DNA from: Candidatus Heimdallarchaeota archaeon
GTDB lineage: Archaea > Asgardarchaeota > Heimdallarchaeia > JABLTI01
NCBI GenBank assembly: GCA_019056785.1
Contig: DXJV01000100.1
Location: 4,993-68,992 of the forward strand
Reading direction: 5' to 3'
DNA: 64,000 bases
The translations under genes and the position numbers were made by a program. The notes under the pieces were generated by a model, which did not search any database, had not been told where the DNA came from, and worked only from the letters and a program-made list of their open reading frames with translations. Shown here piece after piece: positions 2,024-53,440 of the stretch. Every line of letters starts with the position of its first letter. Position 1 is the first letter of the stretch.

Positions 2024-2163
2024 TGGTGGACCGAGCGAGATTTGAATTCGCGGAAGGAGGGACTCATCCCATACTTCGCTCGCGGCCTTCGGAAGGTCTG
2101 TCGGAAGGTCCGCAACCTTTTCGATTGCAAATCCGACGTTCTACCAGTCTGAACTATCGGCCC
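2024..2163 (-). tRNA. tRNA-Ala(UGC) with two introns, CCA encoded
   Basis: Reverse complement folds as GGGCCGA/TCGGTCC acceptor with the G3:U70 Ala identity pair, D arm GTTC..GAAC, anticodon stem TCGGA/TCCGA with loop TTTGCAA, T arm GCGAG-TTCAAAT-CTCGC, then ACCA. The gene is 140 nt against ~77 nt mature. Inferred introns lie at ~2094..2124 (anticodon loop) and ~2047..2078 (between T-stem and T-loop, 53/54). Junctions are uncertain by 1-2 nt. Confidence 0.8.
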
Positions 2164-41568: not shown

Positions 41569-42906
41569 GTGGTGGGTGTTATGTTTAAGACAAAAAGATT
41601 GTTAATAGTGATCTTTACTGTTTTAATATTGAGCCAAACCCCTTATAGTTTGGCTGAAAATCCTTCAACAATTATTAGCTATGAGGGAACGAAAGCTTGG
41701 GAAATGCCACAACAACTTTTTCCCAGTAATTCTCTTTTATTTGTGAAAAACCCACAAATACTTTCAAATGAACAGGGTAAGCAAGTCGCTCTGTGGATAG
41801 CTTATAACGAAACGTACTCTGAAATCCATTGTCAGACATTTACCGGAGAAAGCTGGCTTCTGAACAACACTATTTTTATTATTTCTGGTAATTATACACA
41901 AATCTCAACATTCAAAGCTGTCTTGGACAGTGAGAACAAACTACATGTCGTTTGGAAGGATGCGGGGGTCCATTATCGCTCTTTATGGAATAATGTTCTT
42001 TCTCTTGTAATCGATCTTCAGGATATGTACCCCACTTTTGATCTGGCTCTTCTCTCTTCGAATCGTCTCGCTTTGGTTGGTCAGGAAGAGAACAATTTAG
42101 TCTATCTCATTTTTGATGGTAATAGTTGGAGCGAAAGTACGACCATTATTAATTTCGATGACTTGGAGGTCCCATATTATATTCATACTTTGGACCTTGC
42201 AGCCGGAACAAATGATAATCTCTTTGTTTGTTGTACGGGTTCAAAATATGACCCAATAGAAGAAAGATCTGTAGAAATACTGCTTTGCTTATTCTATGAT
42301 GGAACAACTTGGCAAAGAACCTCAGAACCATCAGTAGAAAAACCGTACATTGGAAAGGTTACTTTTGATGAGACCGGAAAAGTGCATCTCTTTTATACCT
42401 CATTTAATTCGGGGAATGTTCTTTGGCATCAAGTTTGGCTGAACAAATGGAGCAAAGTTGAAAAGGCCGTCGAATTTCCCCAGGACAATACGGAGAGGCA
42501 TTGGAGTAGTATTATAAACCACGATGTTGCCATTTCAGGTTCAGACATCTTTATTGCTATGGCAGCAACAGAGTGGACAACCATCGGATTTAATCTCGAT
42601 CTGCTCATCGCACACTATCGGAGCGGTTGGCAGTGGGAGCCAATTTTTGATGATGATGACTCTTATATCTATGAAACGTCTATTGCTATCAACAAAAATG
42701 GTGATGTTTTCTTGCTGGCTATTGAGAATTTTACTCCGAACAACTTTACCTGTGCAGACCTCATTTTTCTCTATGGTGAAAAACTATTCAACTATAAATC
42801 ATCACATAGTATTGGCTTCAATCTTCCAACAACGATCCTTCTTTCCTCAGTAACAGTAGCAATGTTTGTATTAATAAGGCGAAGGAAGAACAGACAAAAC
42901 CTCTAA
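41569..42906 (+). CDS. secreted repeat protein (beta-propeller-like) with C-terminal TM anchor
   Basis: N-terminal signal/TM; recurring ~50-aa units each with a conserved W (ESW, NSWSES, TTWQRT, NKWSKV); C-terminal TM plus RRRKNR. Confidence 0.5.
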   Translation: MVGVMFKTKRLLIVIFTVLILSQTPYSLAENPSTIISYEGTKAWEMPQQLFPSNSLLFVKNPQILSNEQGKQVALWIAYNETYSEIHCQTFTGESWLLNNTIFIISGNYTQISTFKAVLDSENKLHVVWKDAGVHYRSLWNNVLSLVIDLQDMYPTFDLALLSSNRLALVGQEENNLVYLIFDGNSWSESTTIINFDDLEVPYYIHTLDLAAGTNDNLFVCCTGSKYDPIEERSVEILLCLFYDGTTWQRTSEPSVEKPYIGKVTFDETGKVHLFYTSFNSGNVLWHQVWLNKWSKVEKAVEFPQDNTERHWSSIINHDVAISGSDIFIAMAATEWTTIGFNLDLLIAHYRSGWQWEPIFDDDDSYIYETSIAINKNGDVFLLAIENFTPNNFTCADLIFLYGEKLFNYKSSHSIGFNLPTTILLSSVTVAMFVLIRRRKNRQNL

Positions 42907-42986
42907 ATTTCTTCCTTTTTTTGAATTTTCAAATAAAAATCCATAGTTTTATAAATTCATTCACAGCAATTTACCATAGGTCTATT

Positions 42987-43009
42987 GGACGTGTGGCTTA
43001 GTTTGGATA
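42987..43009 (+). other. tRNA 5' fragment (acceptor strand plus D-stem 5' strand and D-loop)
   Basis: GGACGTG-TG-GCTT-AGTTTGGATA. The acceptor strand is perfectly complementary to CACGTCC at 46193..46199. tRNA similarity ends at about position 21/22. Confidence 0.45.
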
Positions 43010-43141
43010 GATGTTTTTGAAAAGAAAAATCCTAACTTGAAAAAATTTGTTCATAACATTAGCAATTATAATTATTTGATTATAATGATTATCATGAGCT
43101 AAATTATCCAAAAAATAAATAAAAAAGTGTAAGAAAGTATT

Positions 43142-43576
43142 TTACTCTTTTATAGTTCCTTCTTCTTTTGCTTTTTCAATCAAAGGTAGTAAATCCATTG
43201 TTGGGATCATTGGCGCATATTGTCCCCAGGTCCACTTATCTTTTTTGTTGCGAATCTTACCTATAATATAGTAACCAAAACGATAACTATCTTTGAATTT
43301 ATATTTCGCTATTTGGTCCTTCTCACCTTCTGATTTTTGGTGTTCTAAACGTAAAATTTCAAACACTTTTTCAGGGTTATCGGTTTCTGTCATGTAAGTA
43401 GCAGCAACCACTTTCAAGAAATGGTGTCCTTTTCGAGAAATATCTTTGACTTTGATCAATCGCCCTATTTCTTTTTGCTTTTTCCTTTCAATAAATTCTT
43501 CGGCTGTTTCAGCCACAATTATCACCGTAGGTAAAATAATTCTTAGATTAATAAAAATTATGTTACCAGAAATCAC
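43142..43576 (-). CDS. hypothetical protein (island 2)
   Basis: 144-aa ORF (GTG start in the track) ending ...RFGYYIIGKIRNKKDKWTWGQYAPMIPTMDLLPLIEKAKEEG. An in-frame upstream mini-ORF MNDRKGRTKSRRANRTK is separated from it by one TAA. Confidence 0.4.
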   Translation of the reverse strand: MISGNIIFINLRIILPTVIIVAETAEEFIERKKQKEIGRLIKVKDISRKGHHFLKVVAATYMTETDNPEKVFEILRLEHQKSEGEKDQIAKYKFKDSYRFGYYIIGKIRNKKDKWTWGQYAPMIPTMDLLPLIEKAKEEGTIKE

Positions 43577-43995
43577 AATTAATTTAAAATAATCAGTTAT
43601 TCGGTATTTTTATTTTGTTCTATTTGCTCTTCGGCTTTTTGTTCTTCCTTTACGATCATTCATCAGTTGGGAATATTCTCAGTCAGATTTTTTTAATTTG
43701 TATTTTTATATTTACAAAATTCAAGAGAATACCCACAAATAAATAGAACTCGAAAAGTTTGAATAATTCCTTGAAAATCATTTTCATCTGTTATTTGTAG
43801 TATTTCATCTATTTGTTTCAAAGTATATTGGTTGTTACATTTATCAGTCAAAAATTAATCACGACTTTTTATTCAATTTCTGGTACATGAAGTTATTTTA
43901 GATTGTTCGGACTTAACGTCTTTGGAGCAGACTCGCGTCGTTTCTATTCATCATCCAAGGTTCACAACGCTTCTTGTGTGAAGTTATTGATTCTC

Positions 43996-44163
43996 TCATT
44001 TATTATTCATTTTTTTACAAATAAAGGAACTGTTTTCATAGGTGATGCCTATCGTATCGCCTTTTTTAATTCCCATCGCATTTACTATCTCAATTGGTAT
44101 GGAGAGTTTGTATACTCCTGCATTATAAATTACTTTTCGTTCAAAAACTATTTTTCCTGACAT
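43996..44163 (-). CDS. AbrB/MazE/SpoVT-type DNA-binding protein (55 aa)
   Basis: Hand translation gives MSGKIVFERKVIYNAGVYKLSIPIEIVNAMGIKKGDTIGITYENSSFICKKMNNK, with the looped-hinge-helix signature (lsIP.eiv.alglkkGD.v). Below the ORF-track size cutoff. Divergent from the 577-aa gene. Confidence 0.6.
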   Translation of the reverse strand: MSGKIVFERKVIYNAGVYKLSIPIEIVNAMGIKKGDTIGITYENSSFICKKMNNK

Positions 44164-44194
44164 ATGCTTTTTCCCTATCTTTTCTTCTTGTGCA

Positions 44195-44235
44195 GAATAT
44201 TTAAATATTATCGTTTCTATACATAATATGTATAG
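44195..44235. promoter_or_regulatory. divergent promoter region with two perfect palindromes
   Basis: AATATTTAAATATT (44195..44208, TATA-like) and CTATACAT-AAT-ATGTATAG (44217..44235) lie between the AbrB-like gene and the 577-aa gene. Confidence 0.3.
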
Positions 44236-44252
44236 TTTATGTACGGTAAATT

Positions 44253-45986
44253 ATGATGCTCAATCTATTATTCAGACAAGAAAAAAAACAAAGAGGTTCA
44301 AAAACAATTATTTATAGAAATGGCACCATATTGTTGAAAAGCAAAACATCAAAATATGGAATGAACATTCCTAGTGGTTTATACAGGTGGAAAAAATTAC
44401 CAAAAAAGAAAAGTGATGATAAATTAAAAGTAGTTGTTGATTTTTGGCATAAAAAAAACAAATTCGAAAGTGTACTTTGTATCATTTACCATAATAATTA
44501 CTCTTGTTATTTACGACCTGTAAATAATAAAAATCAAGAACAAAATATTTTACAACTTATGAAAAAGAATGCTATTTTAAAATGTGTAATCCCAAATAAA
44601 GTAAGTAAAGATGAACAGATTCCATCAACCGATTATTTAAAGCAAGCATTATTTTTAGCAGAGCAAGTTGTTTTACCTAACATTGATACCTTACAATTAG
44701 TTACTTTTGGCAGAATGCAAAATACAAAATACGAAATTTATTCAGATAATGAAATGAATCTTTACTTAAAATGCCGTGGTAAAATAAGTAGAAAGGGCGT
44801 TTTAATTTTATCTTCAGAAATTTCCCGTTATATACAAAATTGGTTTGAGAAAGAAATTTTATGTTTGTGTTCAATAAATGCTAAACCACCAATAGTTTTA
44901 ACTTTAACAACTCGCAAGAGAAACTCCACAAAAAAAATTTACAAAGAATTAAACCTTCCCTACTATGGAGATCCAAAAGAAGGAATAGTATATTTTACAT
45001 CCAATGGTTTAGAATTAACTAAACAAGCAAGAAAGGACTTACAGTTGAAATCCCAACTAAGTAATAATGGTTATAATTTTCTTAATCTCAAATCTACTCT
45101 TAGACATGGGAAACATTACAACAGGGAGTTTGAACAACGAGTTAGAGATTTAATTGGTAGAGCTTTTAGAGATTACGAGGACACTATTCTTTTATCAGAA
45201 GTTGAGCTCACACTTACGGATGATGATTTTCCTTTAACTGGTTGGGATAAACATCGTTTTGATTCTTTTATTTATCATCAAGATGATTTTCATGATTATG
45301 TAGCTTTAATTGAACTAAAGACATCTATCGAGCCTTCAAATAAATGTGGAATTATCGAGAGTGCAATTGCGAAGCTCTACCAGTTTAGAAAACGCATAAA
45401 TAAAAAAACTATTGTTCCAATCCTTATTATTAATGAAGATATATATTATCAAGGGGAAATAGCCACCAAAGCGTATGGGGACTTGTGTAACGTCATTCTA
45501 ATTGGTCGAAAGGAATTAGTTGCCTTGATAGAAAACCCATCTCATCTTCATAAAAGAATACAAAACTACCTTGACACTCAAGGCTTTAAACAATCTCCCC
45601 CACCGATAAAAATGCGCGCAATCAATTCAGTATCCGAAGGTTCTGCATTTGAAGAAAAAATAAAGGACAAATTGCTAATTGAAGGTTACAAGGTCCAATC
45701 AAATGTGCTTTACAGAGTACAATCTAAACATATGGAAATTGACCATATAACAACTAAACAAGATGAGAAAATACTTGTTAGTTGTAAGGATCATAAAACA
45801 ATAACTTCTGAATGGAAAATTCTCCTAAAATTATCTGACATTTTAAACATTATAGTTCTTAGAAAAGCATTACTTGGCTTTTCACAAGCTCGATTGTATG
45901 TGAAAGTTCATCCTAAAATAAAAGACAAGATCACACAAATTCTAAATCTTAAAGAAATTTCCGAAGTGGATGTTTTTATAGAATAA
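44253..45986 (+). CDS. 577-aa protein with two PD-(D/E)xK nuclease-like modules (Mrr/restriction-endonuclease-like)
   Basis: Module 1: NREFEQRVRDLIG...HRFDSFIY...YVALIELKTS. Module 2: GSAFEEKIKDKLLIEGYKV...MEIDHITTKQDEKILVSCKDHK (Mrr_cat-like G..FE...GY...D...xCK). The N-terminal ~280 aa are unassigned. Confidence 0.5.
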   Translation: MMLNLLFRQEKKQRGSKTIIYRNGTILLKSKTSKYGMNIPSGLYRWKKLPKKKSDDKLKVVVDFWHKKNKFESVLCIIYHNNYSCYLRPVNNKNQEQNILQLMKKNAILKCVIPNKVSKDEQIPSTDYLKQALFLAEQVVLPNIDTLQLVTFGRMQNTKYEIYSDNEMNLYLKCRGKISRKGVLILSSEISRYIQNWFEKEILCLCSINAKPPIVLTLTTRKRNSTKKIYKELNLPYYGDPKEGIVYFTSNGLELTKQARKDLQLKSQLSNNGYNFLNLKSTLRHGKHYNREFEQRVRDLIGRAFRDYEDTILLSEVELTLTDDDFPLTGWDKHRFDSFIYHQDDFHDYVALIELKTSIEPSNKCGIIESAIAKLYQFRKRINKKTIVPILIINEDIYYQGEIATKAYGDLCNVILIGRKELVALIENPSHLHKRIQNYLDTQGFKQSPPPIKMRAINSVSEGSAFEEKIKDKLLIEGYKVQSNVLYRVQSKHMEIDHITTKQDEKILVSCKDHKTITSEWKILLKLSDILNIIVLRKALLGFSQARLYVKVHPKIKDKITQILNLKEISEVDVFIE

Positions 45987-45988
45987 AG

Positions 45989-46097
45989 TGGCGGGTGCGG
46001 TCAGATTCGAACTGACGACTTCCTCTAACTGGAAATCCAAGCGCACCAGGAGATCACTCCGCAGGGAGGCGCATTATCCGTGCTATACTACGCACCC
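45989..46097 (-). tRNA. tRNA-Arg(GCG) with one 31-nt intron, CCA encoded
   Basis: Reverse complement folds as GGGTGCG/CGCACCC acceptor, D arm GTAT..ATGC, anticodon stem CCTCC with loop CTGCGGA, T arm GTCAG-TTCGAAT-CTGAC, then GCCA. The intron is ~46026..46056. A perfect GGAGG 3' stem strand is obtained only if the intron lies at 39/40. Confidence 0.7.
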
Positions 46098-46179
46098 AAT
46101 CAGTAATTGGAATTGATGTTATGTCCTTTTTAAAAATATGGATTCTAATTATAAATAAATTATTTGCAAATGTTCCTTT

Positions 46180-46203
46180 GTTCGAATCCGCTCACGTCCG
46201 CCA
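46180..46203 (+). other. tRNA 3' fragment (T-loop, T-stem 3' strand, acceptor 3' strand, discriminator, CCA)
   Basis: G-TTCGAAT-CCGCT-CACGTCC-G-CCA. No matching T-stem 5' strand (AGCGG) lies upstream. The acceptor pairs with 42987..42993. Confidence 0.5.
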
Positions 46204-46217
46204 TTTTTCTTTCCCCT

Positions 46218-47411
46218 TTACTCTTTGATTTTCTTTTTTAACGGCCGATCGTTCTTTGTCCTTGGTTTATCTTGCTGTTCGAGCCATTGCAAGAGGTTTG
46301 CTTGGTCGATAATTTTTCTTGCAACTGCTTTTTGTGCTTTCGTTTTCGAAGGGCCGGTTCCAAGCTCAAAATAATTTTCGCCTTCGACTTGTAGATGAAG
46401 GAGCAGTAGCACAATTTTTTCTTTCTTCTCAGTCGCTTCCTTTTGTTTCTTCCGCTCTTTTTCGTCGAGTTCTACCAGCCATGCTGCCACGCGCAGTTGT
46501 TCTTTAAAAAGGGCGCTTAACTGTGCCAGTAAGTAGTAGGGGTTTGTTTCCCTTTTCGCCCGCGCCCACTCTACCAGCCGTTTGTTTGGGTCGAGCCTAA
46601 TTGTCAATTCCTCTCCACTGTTAATGAAATCGTTTGTTCTTAGAAAGCGTAGCTCCGTTTCCTCGAGAGAGTGCATTGGTCTGCCAGCAAATAAGATTCG
46701 TTTTGTTTCTTCTCGCCGAGCATATTCATCAGCTATTCTTTCCTGTACCTTTCCCAGTGTTCGCAACAATTTGTATGCCACATCTTGTTCGGCATCCTTT
46801 TTTTTAGCATACAAACCACTCTTCAATTTGTATGTTTTCCCGTGGTATCGCGCCAGTATGGTACACTGCCAGTTTGGTTGGTGCTCTTCCCCGAAGTTTT
46901 GCCAATCGTATGCTGGCAACGCTTCTTTTTCTTTTTGAAAAAGTTCATTCAGTTCTCCCTTCCAGTTGCGGTCAATATACTTATTCTTGTTAGCAATTTC
47001 CAATAATTGCTTGACAATTTCTTTGACTGTTTTAAACCCATTTACTTTGTAACTTGCTGCAAGAAGGGATTCAATTGCTTCCTTTATTTCATTGTCTGTT
47101 GCCTGATGGTTCGGCTTGTGGCTGTTAATTGCTTCATCTAACCCGAGCCATTGTCCAAGCAAAACAAGTGTCCGTCGCGAATGAAATGCCGTCCTCAGTT
47201 TTGTTTGTAACCCCACGTCCTTAATTTCCGGAAAGATCTCCAAAAGGGCTCTATTGAGAAGGTTGTCCCCCTCGAGTGCTAATTTTTTAAACTCCTTTGT
47301 CCCCCCGCACGATTTTGGTTTTGTTGCTTTTTCGACGAGTTCGGGGTGTTGCTCTAGTTTAAAGAATTTAACAAATGGAGGGACAGTTGAGGGATGGGGC
47401 ATGTAGTTCAC
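46218..47411 (-). CDS. RNase III-like domain protein with two dsRNA-binding-domain-like modules
   Basis: KKLALEGDNLLNRAL (compare RNase III/Mini-III LEFLGD / LAYLGD) and IKEAIESLLAASY (compare AD.FEALIGAIY). Canonical dsRBD: NWKGELNELFQKE...PAYDW...EEHQPNWQCTILARYHGKTYKLKSGLYAKKKDAEQDVAYKLL. Second partial dsRBD: HLQVEGENYFELGTGPSKTKAQKAVARKII. Confidence 0.55.
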   Translation of the reverse strand: MNYMPHPSTVPPFVKFFKLEQHPELVEKATKPKSCGGTKEFKKLALEGDNLLNRALLEIFPEIKDVGLQTKLRTAFHSRRTLVLLGQWLGLDEAINSHKPNHQATDNEIKEAIESLLAASYKVNGFKTVKEIVKQLLEIANKNKYIDRNWKGELNELFQKEKEALPAYDWQNFGEEHQPNWQCTILARYHGKTYKLKSGLYAKKKDAEQDVAYKLLRTLGKVQERIADEYARREETKRILFAGRPMHSLEETELRFLRTNDFINSGEELTIRLDPNKRLVEWARAKRETNPYYLLAQLSALFKEQLRVAAWLVELDEKERKKQKEATEKKEKIVLLLLHLQVEGENYFELGTGPSKTKAQKAVARKIIDQANLLQWLEQQDKPRTKNDRPLKKKIKE

Positions 47412-52006: not shown

Positions 52007-53440
52007 ATGGCTGAAGAAATTATAAAATCAAAACAAAGTAAAAAATGGCTAAAGGTTGTTGCAATCACTCTCTCACTTGTGGTGGTACTTTCCGGTATTA
52101 GTTACGGCATTTACTATTTTGTGAGCAATCGCCGGTCCGAACCTGCACAAGATTTTTCAGTGATGACGTTAACGAATAAGAATTTCACCCTCTCGAATTA
52201 TCGGGGCAAGGTGATCTTACTCGATTTTATGAGCGTTTCTTGTATCCCTTGTCAAGAACTGATGCCTGAGCTGGCAACAATTCGCGACCATTTTAATGAG
52301 AGCTTAGTTATGCTTTCCATTGATGTGGACCTGACTGATACGGTAGCACAATTACTCAATTTCAGCTCGAAATATAATGCAACATGGGAATTTGCTTTTG
52401 ATACAGATAACCTCCAGGAAAAATATGGGGTGCTCCAGATCCCAAAGACAGTTGTTATCGACCAGAATGGGTTTATCACGTTTGCAGAAACAGGCTTTCA
52501 AGCAGGTGGTTCCAAACTCAAGGAAATCATCCAAAAAACCCTCGAGGGAAAGGCCGAGCCCATTTTTACCGCGACCTTTGGTGTTTCTATTGGCGCTGCG
52601 TTTATTGCCGGGTTTCTCTCATTCTTCTCGCCATGTGCTTTTCCGCTTCTCCCAGGGTACATGGCATACAATCTTGACCTTATGGTACGGTCAGATGACA
52701 AAGAAAAGGCTGAAGAGAATACGCGTTTTCAGTCACAAAAAGGGCGTTTCTGGAAGTCACTTATCTGGGGGAGTGCTTCCGGCCTGGGAATCTTTCTCTT
52801 TTACATGATAATTGGGATTGTCATTTCTGTGCTGGTGCTGGTATACGATAAAAGTTTGGAGAACCTTGATAAGATTGCAGAGATTTCTGAGTACATTCAA
52901 CTTTCGGTTGGCTTATTACTTATTATTTTAGGTATTCTTTCTTTTACCCCTATTTCGCTTGATATGAGTAAAATTATCATTAAAATTGAAACGGCTTCTC
53001 AAAGGAGAAAAGAACGCCGTCGGCAACGGAAAATTGCCAAGGGACTTATCAAAGATGCCGATGCAGCTGAAGCTACGGCCCCCGGGAAAGCGCCCTCACA
53101 TTTTAAACGTTGGCTTCCCCAAATGACGCAGCTCTTCATTTATGGCATAACCTATGCCCTTGCCTCTATTGGTTGCAGTTTACCCATCTTATTGAGCCTA
53201 ATGCTTACGGCCTTTAATGCAGGAACATTTGCAAAAGCAATCTCAATTTTCATTGTTTACTCCCTTGTCATGGCTATCCTCATGGTAGTTATTGCCATTC
53301 TGGTTGGCTTCTCGAAAGAAACTTTGATTACCAAACTTCAAGCTTCCACGAAATTTGTCAAAATTTTCACAGGAGTCCTGTTGATCCTCGCTGGTGGGTT
53401 CCTAGTTGGCTATTTCCTATGGAATCGTTTTAAAATATAA
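52007..53440 (+). CDS. fusion of TlpA-like thioredoxin domain and CcdA/DsbD-type thiol-disulfide transporter
   Basis: N-terminal TM; FMSVSCIPCQELMP (CxxC); membrane domain with FFSPCAFPLLPGY and IGCSLPIL motifs typical of CcdA. Confidence 0.7.
   Translation: MAEEIIKSKQSKKWLKVVAITLSLVVVLSGISYGIYYFVSNRRSEPAQDFSVMTLTNKNFTLSNYRGKVILLDFMSVSCIPCQELMPELATIRDHFNESLVMLSIDVDLTDTVAQLLNFSSKYNATWEFAFDTDNLQEKYGVLQIPKTVVIDQNGFITFAETGFQAGGSKLKEIIQKTLEGKAEPIFTATFGVSIGAAFIAGFLSFFSPCAFPLLPGYMAYNLDLMVRSDDKEKAEENTRFQSQKGRFWKSLIWGSASGLGIFLFYMIIGIVISVLVLVYDKSLENLDKIAEISEYIQLSVGLLLIILGILSFTPISLDMSKIIIKIETASQRRKERRRQRKIAKGLIKDADAAEATAPGKAPSHFKRWLPQMTQLFIYGITYALASIGCSLPILLSLMLTAFNAGTFAKAISIFIVYSLVMAILMVVIAILVGFSKETLITKLQASTKFVKIFTGVLLILAGGFLVGYFLWNRFKI

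Follow-up and report, generated by a model that had tools for sequence, protein, structure and literature searches.

True split transfer RNAs (tRNAs) carry complementary leader and trailer sequences rich in guanine and cytosine (GC), which form a bulge-helix-bulge junction. Their pieces cover the whole cloverleaf and are the sole source of the isoacceptor. Fragments of tRNA genes are also left by integrating elements, as described for the Thermococcaceae (van der Gulik et al., 2023, PMC9897764). [quoted passage not shown] HeimV1, aloposons and CRISPR-Cas cassettes are integrated at tRNA genes in Candidatus Heimdallarchaeum (Wu et al., 2022, PMC8813620). The present analysis concerns a stretch of 64,000 nucleotides (nt) from a Candidatus Heimdallarchaeota archaeon (contig DXJV01000100.1, positions 4,993 to 68,992), hereafter called the window, in which two short pieces of one tRNA gene, here named X, bracket an AT-rich island. 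The pieces are most probably the outer remnants of X, which would have been broken at a recombination hotspot by an imported AT-rich block with its own tRNA-Arg(GCG).

Both pieces had been noticed in an earlier inspection of the letters alone (the sequence-only reading), and their positions on the plus strand could be confirmed by direct readout of the 5' piece, GGACGTGTGGCTTAGTTTGGATA, and the 3' piece, GTTCGAATCCGCTCACGTCCGCCA (Table 1). GGACGTG and CACGTCC, the two acceptor strands, pair perfectly as reverse complements (7/7 positions), as had been claimed. A complementary 7-mer followed by T[AG]G is expected ~0.02 times by chance on one strand of the 10 kb upstream, and one was observed. 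Neither ARAGORN (default) nor Rfam called the pieces as tRNA in the window, and Rfam in truncated mode gave no tRNA match at E<=10 for either fragment alone, a result that is uninformative for 23-24 nt because the pairing partners are missing. Their tRNA origin is shown by homology to the promoters and exons of intact tRNA-Arg(GCG) genes and to longer remnants. These comparisons span the window, 64 kb in length, and related loci of ~250 kb in total, numbered L002-L022. Intact tRNA-Arg(GCG) genes can be aligned through their promoter and 5' exon with the 5' piece and the promoter box upstream of it, the homology stopping at position ~23-25. For the 3' piece, the counterparts are the 3' exon of the gene that is intact in L020 and longer remnants found in L014 and L016.

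The identity of X is shown by L020, which contains an intact plus-strand tRNA-Arg(GCG) gene with a 31-nt intron (ARAGORN). The promoter of this gene, CCTATAGTTTTATAAATT, matches the box upstream of the window 5' fragment, and its 3' exon, ATGGGAGATC-GGCGG-TTCGAAT-CCGCC-CACACCC-GCCA, is of the same type as the 3' remnants that the window, L014, L016 and L018 contain. Because the intact gene has the window-type promoter and 3' exon, X is identified as a second tRNA-Arg(GCG) gene, arranged head-to-head with the island copy (Arg1) and redundant with it; the sequence-only reading had rightly seen a broken tRNA gene but had left it unnamed. Arg1 is predicted to be the functional tRNA-Arg(GCG) copy of this genome, and the same gene type is present in L019, L008 and L021. 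In the window, L014, L016 and L018 the island tRNA-Arg is intact and X is broken, whereas the reverse is seen in L020, where the tRNA-Arg adjoining the nuclease-like gene of the island is 5'-truncated, the anticodon loop CTGCGGA has become CTACGGA and both the acceptor and the CCA are altered. As judged from these gene pairs, one of two redundant tRNA-Arg(GCG) copies is lost per lineage, as befits a relic.

The promoters give a consistent picture. The motif ATCCATAnTTTTAnAAA occurs only 46-48 nt upstream of the 5' piece, of the window tRNA-Arg and of the L006 tRNA-Arg, and is absent before tRNA-Lys and tRNA-Ala. Box P_A, upstream of the 5' piece, can be aligned with sequence from the promoters of tRNA-Arg genes that are intact in L020 and L019, and box P_B, which belongs to Arg1, is identical at 23/23 positions to the box before the L006 tRNA-Arg and conserved as TTTWTAAAAATATGKATT across islands. 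The two promoter regions are united in the longest inverted repeat of the region, I1, in which the P_A region pairs with 46111-46155; in another inverted repeat, I6, the 3' end of the tRNA-Arg pairs with the 3' piece. Two variants of the tRNA-Arg promoter, CCTATAGTTTTATAAATT and ATCCATATTTTTAAAAAGG, are joined to differing gene bodies depending on the genome, the first being found on the island-type gene of L019 and the second on the outer 5' fragment of L016. Such mixing of promoters and bodies suggests recombination among tRNA-Arg copies.

Table 1. Coordinates of the broken tRNA gene, the island and neighbouring features in the window
Feature	Position	Strand	Description
5' fragment of X	42987..43009	+	acceptor 5' strand, positions 8-9, D-stem 5' strand, D-loop
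3' fragment of X	46180..46203	+	G53, T-loop, T-stem 3' strand, acceptor 3' strand, discriminator G, CCA
Promoter-like box P_A (ATCCATAGTTTTATAAATT)	42939..42957	+	48 nt upstream of 5' fragment
Promoter-like box P_B (ATCCATATTTTTAAAAAGG) of tRNA-Arg	46125..46143	-	motif comparison
Oligo-T tract	43014..43018	+	T5, starts 5 nt past 5' fragment; sequence readout
tRNA-Arg(GCG), Arg1	45989..46097	-	31-nt intron, encoded CCA; ARAGORN; Rfam 41.8 bits
144-amino-acid open reading frame, island cargo	43142..43576	-	without Pfam, NCBIfam or PADLOC family
55-amino-acid MazE/AbrB-like (SpoVT-AbrB fold) protein	43996..44163	-	Pfam PF04014, E=3.9e-5, slightly below curated cut-off
577-amino-acid island core protein	44253..45986	+	beta-rich N-terminal half and C-terminal PD-(D/E)xK domain(s)
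Deleted island segment	43266..45854		missing in L002, L003, L005/L011; junction CCTATA followed by GTTCTTAG
Divergence tract	46219..46744		66 differences in ~525 nt (~10%), window versus L002-type

The DNA between the pieces differs from its surroundings. The AT-rich character ascribed to the island holds, with 29.5% GC against 40-41% in both flanks. In the low-GC genomes L014 and L016, which hold the closest homologs, the same insert has ~30% GC in a background of 31-34%, and the equal composition of island and insert therefore indicates horizontal acquisition by the 40% GC lineage of the window. The intact tRNA-Arg described on the opposite strand was recovered by both ARAGORN and Rfam, and its 3' end does lie 2 nt from the stop of the 577-amino-acid open reading frame (ORF); Arg1 is 82 nt away from the 3' piece of X.

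The large ORF had been called nuclease-like, and structure prediction bears this out. The AlphaFold2 (AF2) model of the 577-amino-acid protein reached a predicted local distance difference test (pLDDT) value of 80.7, and Foldseek matched it to the nuclease domains of Can2/Card1/Cdn1, AF1548, VC1899, MspJI and FokI. Residues D337..E354-x-K356 and E495-I-D497..K512 are invariant in the family. The protein had no significant family match, with only faint similarity to NERD, YraN and AF1548 (NERD weak in Pfam), and neither PADLOC nor NCBIfam offered a family for the island proteins. The protein is predicted to adopt a restriction-endonuclease fold of the PD-(D/E)xK type and is neither a tyrosine nor a serine recombinase. 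Homologs with 36-68% identity led to seven further loci including L008, in all of which the stop of the nuclease-like gene adjoins an opposite-strand tRNA-Arg(GCG) with a 31-nt intron, the copy in L020 being decayed.

This unannotated nuclease-like family of ~575-590 amino acids was found only on Heimdall-type contigs (window, L008, L014, L016, L018-L021), always with its stop a few nt from the 3' end of tRNA-Arg(GCG) and, in closer relatives, with a divergent MazE/AbrB-like partner. In the window the 55-amino-acid MazE/AbrB-like gene is likewise divergent from the nuclease-like gene, and its protein is 74-78% identical to proteins in the same place beside the large gene in L014 and L016. Faint LAGLIDADG_3 genes (485-551 amino acids) lie divergently upstream of the nuclease-like gene in L018 (6427-8082), L021 (1-1456) and L022 (239-1870); in these distant islands they sit where the window has its MazE/AbrB-like gene.

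An uninterrupted locus, which had been suggested as a check, exists in L006, the nearest island-free relative (flank proteins 52-90% identical). Here, an intact intron-bearing tRNA-Arg(GCG) takes the orientation and position of the window 3' piece and has its 3' end at the same RNase III-like gene that the 3' piece adjoins. The island thus combines deviant composition with presence/absence and an intact tRNA gene at the empty site. The RNase III-like/dsRBD protein of the flank has a 93% homolog annotated as Candidatus Heimdallarchaeota and more distant Asgard homologs, and a scan of genome contigs with the RNase III-like protein gave only an unrelated bacterial match. Exact look-ups of both flank proteins of the window yielded no record. 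Encoded at 46218-47411 (-), this protein is 37-40% identical to that of L006 in its C-terminal half and 67% in its N-terminal half, the former half evolving much faster.

Related loci reveal how often this place has been rearranged. Promoter-bearing 5' fragments of X occur in L016 (2542, 4085), L014 (6921, 8471) and L020 (~5092); all end at ~23-25 and continue with TCTTTTAG, the window counterpart of which is GATGTTTTTG. No 5' fragment in a relative had the GGACGTG allele of the window, and a relaxed pattern retrieved GGGTGTG-type fragments. Direct repeats of the X 3' end are present twice in L016 (7551, 9440), twice in L014 (11937, 13925), four times in L018 and twice in L021/L022, and bound small gene cassettes. 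L016 reads in order 5' fragment a, an LVIVD gene, 5' fragment b, the nuclease block (288-amino-acid ORF, MazE/AbrB, 585-amino-acid nuclease-like protein, minus-strand tRNA-Arg), 3' piece a, an 8xMP gene with two small ORFs and 3' piece b, so that its inner part equals the layout of the window. The inner boundary of the 3' piece varies, lying at ~40 in L014 and L016, 50 in L018, 53 in the window and 54 in L008. Decay at conserved positions is evident in L014 (T-loop TTCCAAT with G57C, TCA for CCA, G18A in the outer 5' fragment) and L021 (T-loop TACAAAT, TTA for CCA), and the 3' piece is also variant or decayed in L018. Scans of viral contigs with both fragments gave zero matches, and matches to the 3' piece in metagenome loci L009, L010 and L012 were discarded as chance similarity to GC-rich bacterial coding sequence. 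Overall, the site appears to be a Heimdallarchaeia hotspot of repeated insertion and recombination at tRNA-Arg genes. The idea that insertion plus deletion destroyed the tRNA gene is thereby supported in substance, with X at a hotspot, an intact copy in L020 and an island-free site in L006.

The 3'-end arrays show some features of their own. The 28-nt repeats of the tRNA-Arg 3' end extend over 10140-13795 in L018, 7551-9467 in L016, 11937-13952 in L014 and 3605-5071 in L021, and the cassettes between them encode NosD-like beta-helix, GNAT, 8xMP membrane and 420-amino-acid proteins, with no integrase nearby. Two of the L018 repeat copies share their downstream flank and NosD paralogs, which makes part of that array a segmental duplication.

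Variation among close strains has been captured by four relatives. L002, L003, L005 and L013, a contig from a metagenome, share 98-99.9% identity with the window, and all have both pieces and the inverted tRNA-Arg. L013 retains the full-length island. Among strains that are ~99.7% identical, a 2.6-kb deletion truncates the 144- and 577-amino-acid genes (only the C-terminal 40 codons of the former are retained in L002-type variants) and spares tRNA-Arg and both stubs; the island genes can thus be dispensed with. Outside the divergence tract, identity between the window and L002 is ~99.7% over 20 kb (~0.3% differences), and on the island side it is ~99%. The tract, which starts 16 nt beyond the CCA ending the 3' fragment and lies in the 3' half of the RNase III-like gene, appears to mark a recombination breakpoint. 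Both of its alleles are equally distant from L006, so that this outgroup does not decide the direction of exchange.

Trans-splicing was the most far-reaching explanation offered by the sequence-only reading. On this view the two pieces would belong to a three-piece trans-spliced tRNA like those of Nanoarchaeum and Caldivirga, and the middle piece would be encoded elsewhere in the genome. The perfectly complementary acceptor strands, the well-preserved tRNA-type promoter of the 5' piece and the encoded CCA kept on the 3' piece are what such a tRNA would have. Four of the five split-tRNA features tested were nonetheless lacking. The predicted middle piece ending in AGCGG is absent from the island plus strand, and a structure scan for it (D-stem 3' strand, anticodon arm, T-stem 5' strand) gave four matches in the window against 2.65 expected, which lie outside the island and have no tRNA-like flanks; over the window and 20 related loci nothing exceeded chance, and no complete cloverleaf with an anticodon arm could be assembled from pieces. 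This search covered the 64-kb window and the related loci. Leaders complementary to the fragment flanks, also predicted, did not materialize either, as the trailer (43010-43040) and leader (46150-46179) show no pairing, with -1.4 kcal/mol against -5.7 +/- 2.2 for shuffled controls. Complements of 15 and 16 nt to the leader and trailer at 53221 and 32600 were rejected, being coding region and low-complexity DNA. The flanks of both pieces are AT-rich, and there is no room for a pairing trailer because the oligo-T tract follows within 5 nt of the 5' piece.

Further features point in the same direction. The product would duplicate the intact tRNA-Arg(GCG) 82 nt away, so that X would not be the sole source of its isoacceptor, and X is an ordinary gene in L020. 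The start of the 3' piece varies by lineage rather than marking a conserved split position, and L014 and L021 have mutations at conserved bases. The promoters speak neither for nor against a split gene: a box of the tRNA-Arg type stands at a suitable distance before the 5' piece, and the sequence before the 3' piece is AT-rich and TATA-like in a generic way and also contains the divergent tRNA-Arg promoter. Trans-splicing is thus not supported, the pieces do not appear to be joined into a tRNA and a three-piece tRNA is extremely improbable. Given the failed split-tRNA tests, the agreement of the breakpoints with known intron and split positions, to which the sequence-only reading had drawn attention, is judged coincidental.

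Attachment (att)-type remnants had been proposed as well. In their strongest form the pieces would be the live attL and attR of an excisable element whose departure restores a functional tRNA gene. Partial tRNA copies at borders are the usual signature of integrated elements, and here such copies do stand next to native flank, the 3' piece by the RNase III-like gene and the 5' piece with its promoter. Repeats of the att type are seen in relatives, as a 5' fragment together with intact X in L020, as 5' fragments with a common junction and as the direct 3'-end arrays of L014, L016, L018 and L021, and integration at tRNA genes is documented in Heimdallarchaeum (PMC8813620). At the window itself, the two ends have no common core and no direct repeats of at least 12 nt link them; ~30 nt of gene and the intron are gone, so that conservative excision could not rebuild the tRNA. 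No integrase or excisionase gene is present, the edge gene encoding a predicted restriction-endonuclease fold, and near-identical strains lost 2.6 kb of the interior through an unrelated deletion. The idea of att-type remnants is supported in substance, relatives having arrays of partial and decayed copies, although the window borders show neither repeat nor integrase; a live excisable element is very unlikely.

Two simpler histories were also rejected. Classical integration into the island's own tRNA-Arg would leave a partial direct repeat of that gene, and no direct repeat of it occurs in any locus. A simple inversion between the I1 promoter/5'-exon copies, modelled by hand from the canonical integrated state, misses the observed arrangement.

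It is conceivable, though unlikely, that the island is a mobile tRNA replacement cassette with tRNA-derived ends which replaces the central part of a tRNA-Arg(GCG) gene already resident. Its short tRNA ends would act as arms for homologous recombination, or the PD-(D/E)xK nuclease would target them in a homing-like manner; no integrase would be needed, and the cassette would bring its own, differently sequenced tRNA-Arg(GCG), which would make it tolerated and costly for the host to lose. Several features fit this proposal. The low-GC block ends exactly at both tRNA pieces in a higher-GC genome, and in every case the tRNA is linked to a nuclease-fold gene. LAGLIDADG-like genes are neighbours of the module in L018, L021 and L022, and L006, which lacks the island, has an intact tRNA-Arg in this place. 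In the window, L016/L014 and L008 the nuclease/tRNA-Arg module comes with the same X 3' allele, CCGCT-CACGTCC, although host flanks differ; in L016 this allele is nested in a fragment pair of another allele, GGGTGTG...CACACCC. The divergence tract extends from the 3' piece, as co-conversion of the flank would give, and the 23-nt identity of the 3' piece leaves room for the block and its ends travelling together. The arms, however, are just 23-24 nt long and have ~6/23 and 5/24 mismatches to L006, the nearest resident-type gene. The nuclease/tRNA-Arg pair of L019 has no X pieces, so that the pair may be an old chromosomal neighbourhood, and the wider synteny is compatible with vertical descent and local rearrangement.

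Disruption of a redundant tRNA-Arg(GCG) gene by an imported block remains the favoured explanation, and several observations weigh against it. The exact allele of X (GGACGTG...CACGTCC) was not found as an intact gene in a scan of JGI metagenomes, and of this genome 64 kb were covered. The window borders show neither a direct att repeat nor an intact X, the two ends being different parts of the gene. Pfam, NCBIfam and PADLOC detected no recombinase domain in the island, and the Pfam tables of the related loci list no integrase or recombinase. Furthermore, the window, L016 and L008 share an identical, unmutated 23-nt 3' piece, even though identity between their island proteins is no more than 36-68% and the spacers are saturated and unalignable. 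On these alignments, a neutral relic should be less conserved than this. To account for it, a long-functional gene would have to have been truncated recently and independently, or the piece would have to move with the block.

In the proposed disruption of X, a horizontally acquired AT-rich block would now lie between X positions ~23 and 53, with the MazE/AbrB-like gene, the PD-(D/E)xK nuclease-like gene and the opposite-strand, intron-bearing tRNA-Arg(GCG) as cargo. The interior of X (D-stem 3' strand, anticodon arm, intron, variable loop and T-stem 5' strand) would have been lost, X having become dispensable because the block supplies a tRNA with the same anticodon. What would be left over is an orphan promoter with a 23-nt 5' stub running into oligo-T and a 24-nt 3' stub beside the native downstream gene. 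The oligo-T would stop transcription from the orphan promoter, and the promoter-driven 5' stub may give rise to a small tRNA-derived RNA.

Two routes fit the data, the order of events being what we infer from the layouts. In the first, integration at the 5' terminus would displace the host promoter and 5' end, as proposed for the Caldiarchaeum tRNA-Thr (PMC3293823), and the promoter and 5' part of the reconstituted copy would later be deleted. Selection would bound this deletion on one side, sparing the adjacent tRNA-Arg promoter; a fixed island-side endpoint and a variable 3'-piece boundary would result because selection limits deletion near that promoter. The deletion seen in L020 is the mirror image of this one. 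The second route would be a single event that replaces the middle of X.

Two further observations concern the surroundings. A gene for a 445-amino-acid secreted or membrane-anchored protein without Pfam family, at 41569-42906 (+), lies between the 5' stub and a conserved 316-amino-acid gene. It is confined to the clade of the window and absent from L006, L014, L016 and L019, and may be a further cassette inserted at the same hotspot. Far from the island, Rfam matched a tRNA at 2027-2163 (-) over 137 nt with 42.6 bits, apparently a tRNA-Ala(TGC) with more than one intron, which ARAGORN overlooked in both default and intron modes.

The analysis removes one candidate split tRNA from the Asgard archaea, where a trans-spliced tRNA would be notable, and offers an origin for the look-alike: with a redundant tRNA-Arg(GCG) pair at a hotspot, one copy erodes per lineage and complementary stubs mimic split halves. 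For annotators of archaeal metagenome-assembled genomes it can serve as a worked example of relics versus split genes. It also documents a hypervariable Heimdallarchaeia tRNA-Arg locus with a conserved nuclease-like/tRNA-Arg module and no integrase. The replacement cassette, if true, would be an unusual entry of foreign DNA into a tRNA gene.

In comparison with known systems, the separate complementary acceptor strands and the promoter of the 5' piece recall the split and tri-split tRNAs of Nanoarchaeum equitans and Caldivirga maquilingensis, from which the window differs in having no paired leader and trailer, no full cloverleaf and no sole-isoacceptor status. Split tRNA genes of this kind are reviewed in PMC3218864 and PMC4033280. 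In classical integration, an intact target stands at one border and a direct repeat at the other, with a whole or partitioned integrase adjacent. The window departs from this, with a target that has not been restored, borders that come from different halves of the gene and no integrase found. SSV- and pNOB8-type elements are similar in forming islands of deviant composition that are bordered by 20-50-nt copies of tRNA ends, several of which can accumulate at one tRNA gene, and such accumulating partial copies match the X 3'-end arrays of L014, L016, L018 and L021 (PMC9897764). The elements of Heimdallarchaeum share the archaeal class and the use of tRNA genes as landing sites, but have integrases or giant genes and are described as lying next to intact tRNA genes; the available part of Wu et al. 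(2022) contains no description of a nuclease/tRNA-Arg module with a broken paralog (PMC8813620).

The Caldiarchaeum tRNA-Thr locus shares a promoter-bearing 5' fragment, a second intact copy, inserted DNA and a D-arm breakpoint with the window (PMC3293823). Its insert encodes a putative recombinase, which the window island does not, and its intact copy has the orientation of the fragment and continues the locus, whereas the intact gene of the window is inverted inside the insert. Caldiarchaeum has no 3' stub, whereas the window keeps both a 5' and a 3' stub (PMC3293823). Disruption of a tRNA gene by inserted DNA is a known kind of event, and it is the layout that is unusual here, with different halves of the target as brackets, an inverted substitute of the same anticodon, no integrase and reciprocal decay of the two copies.

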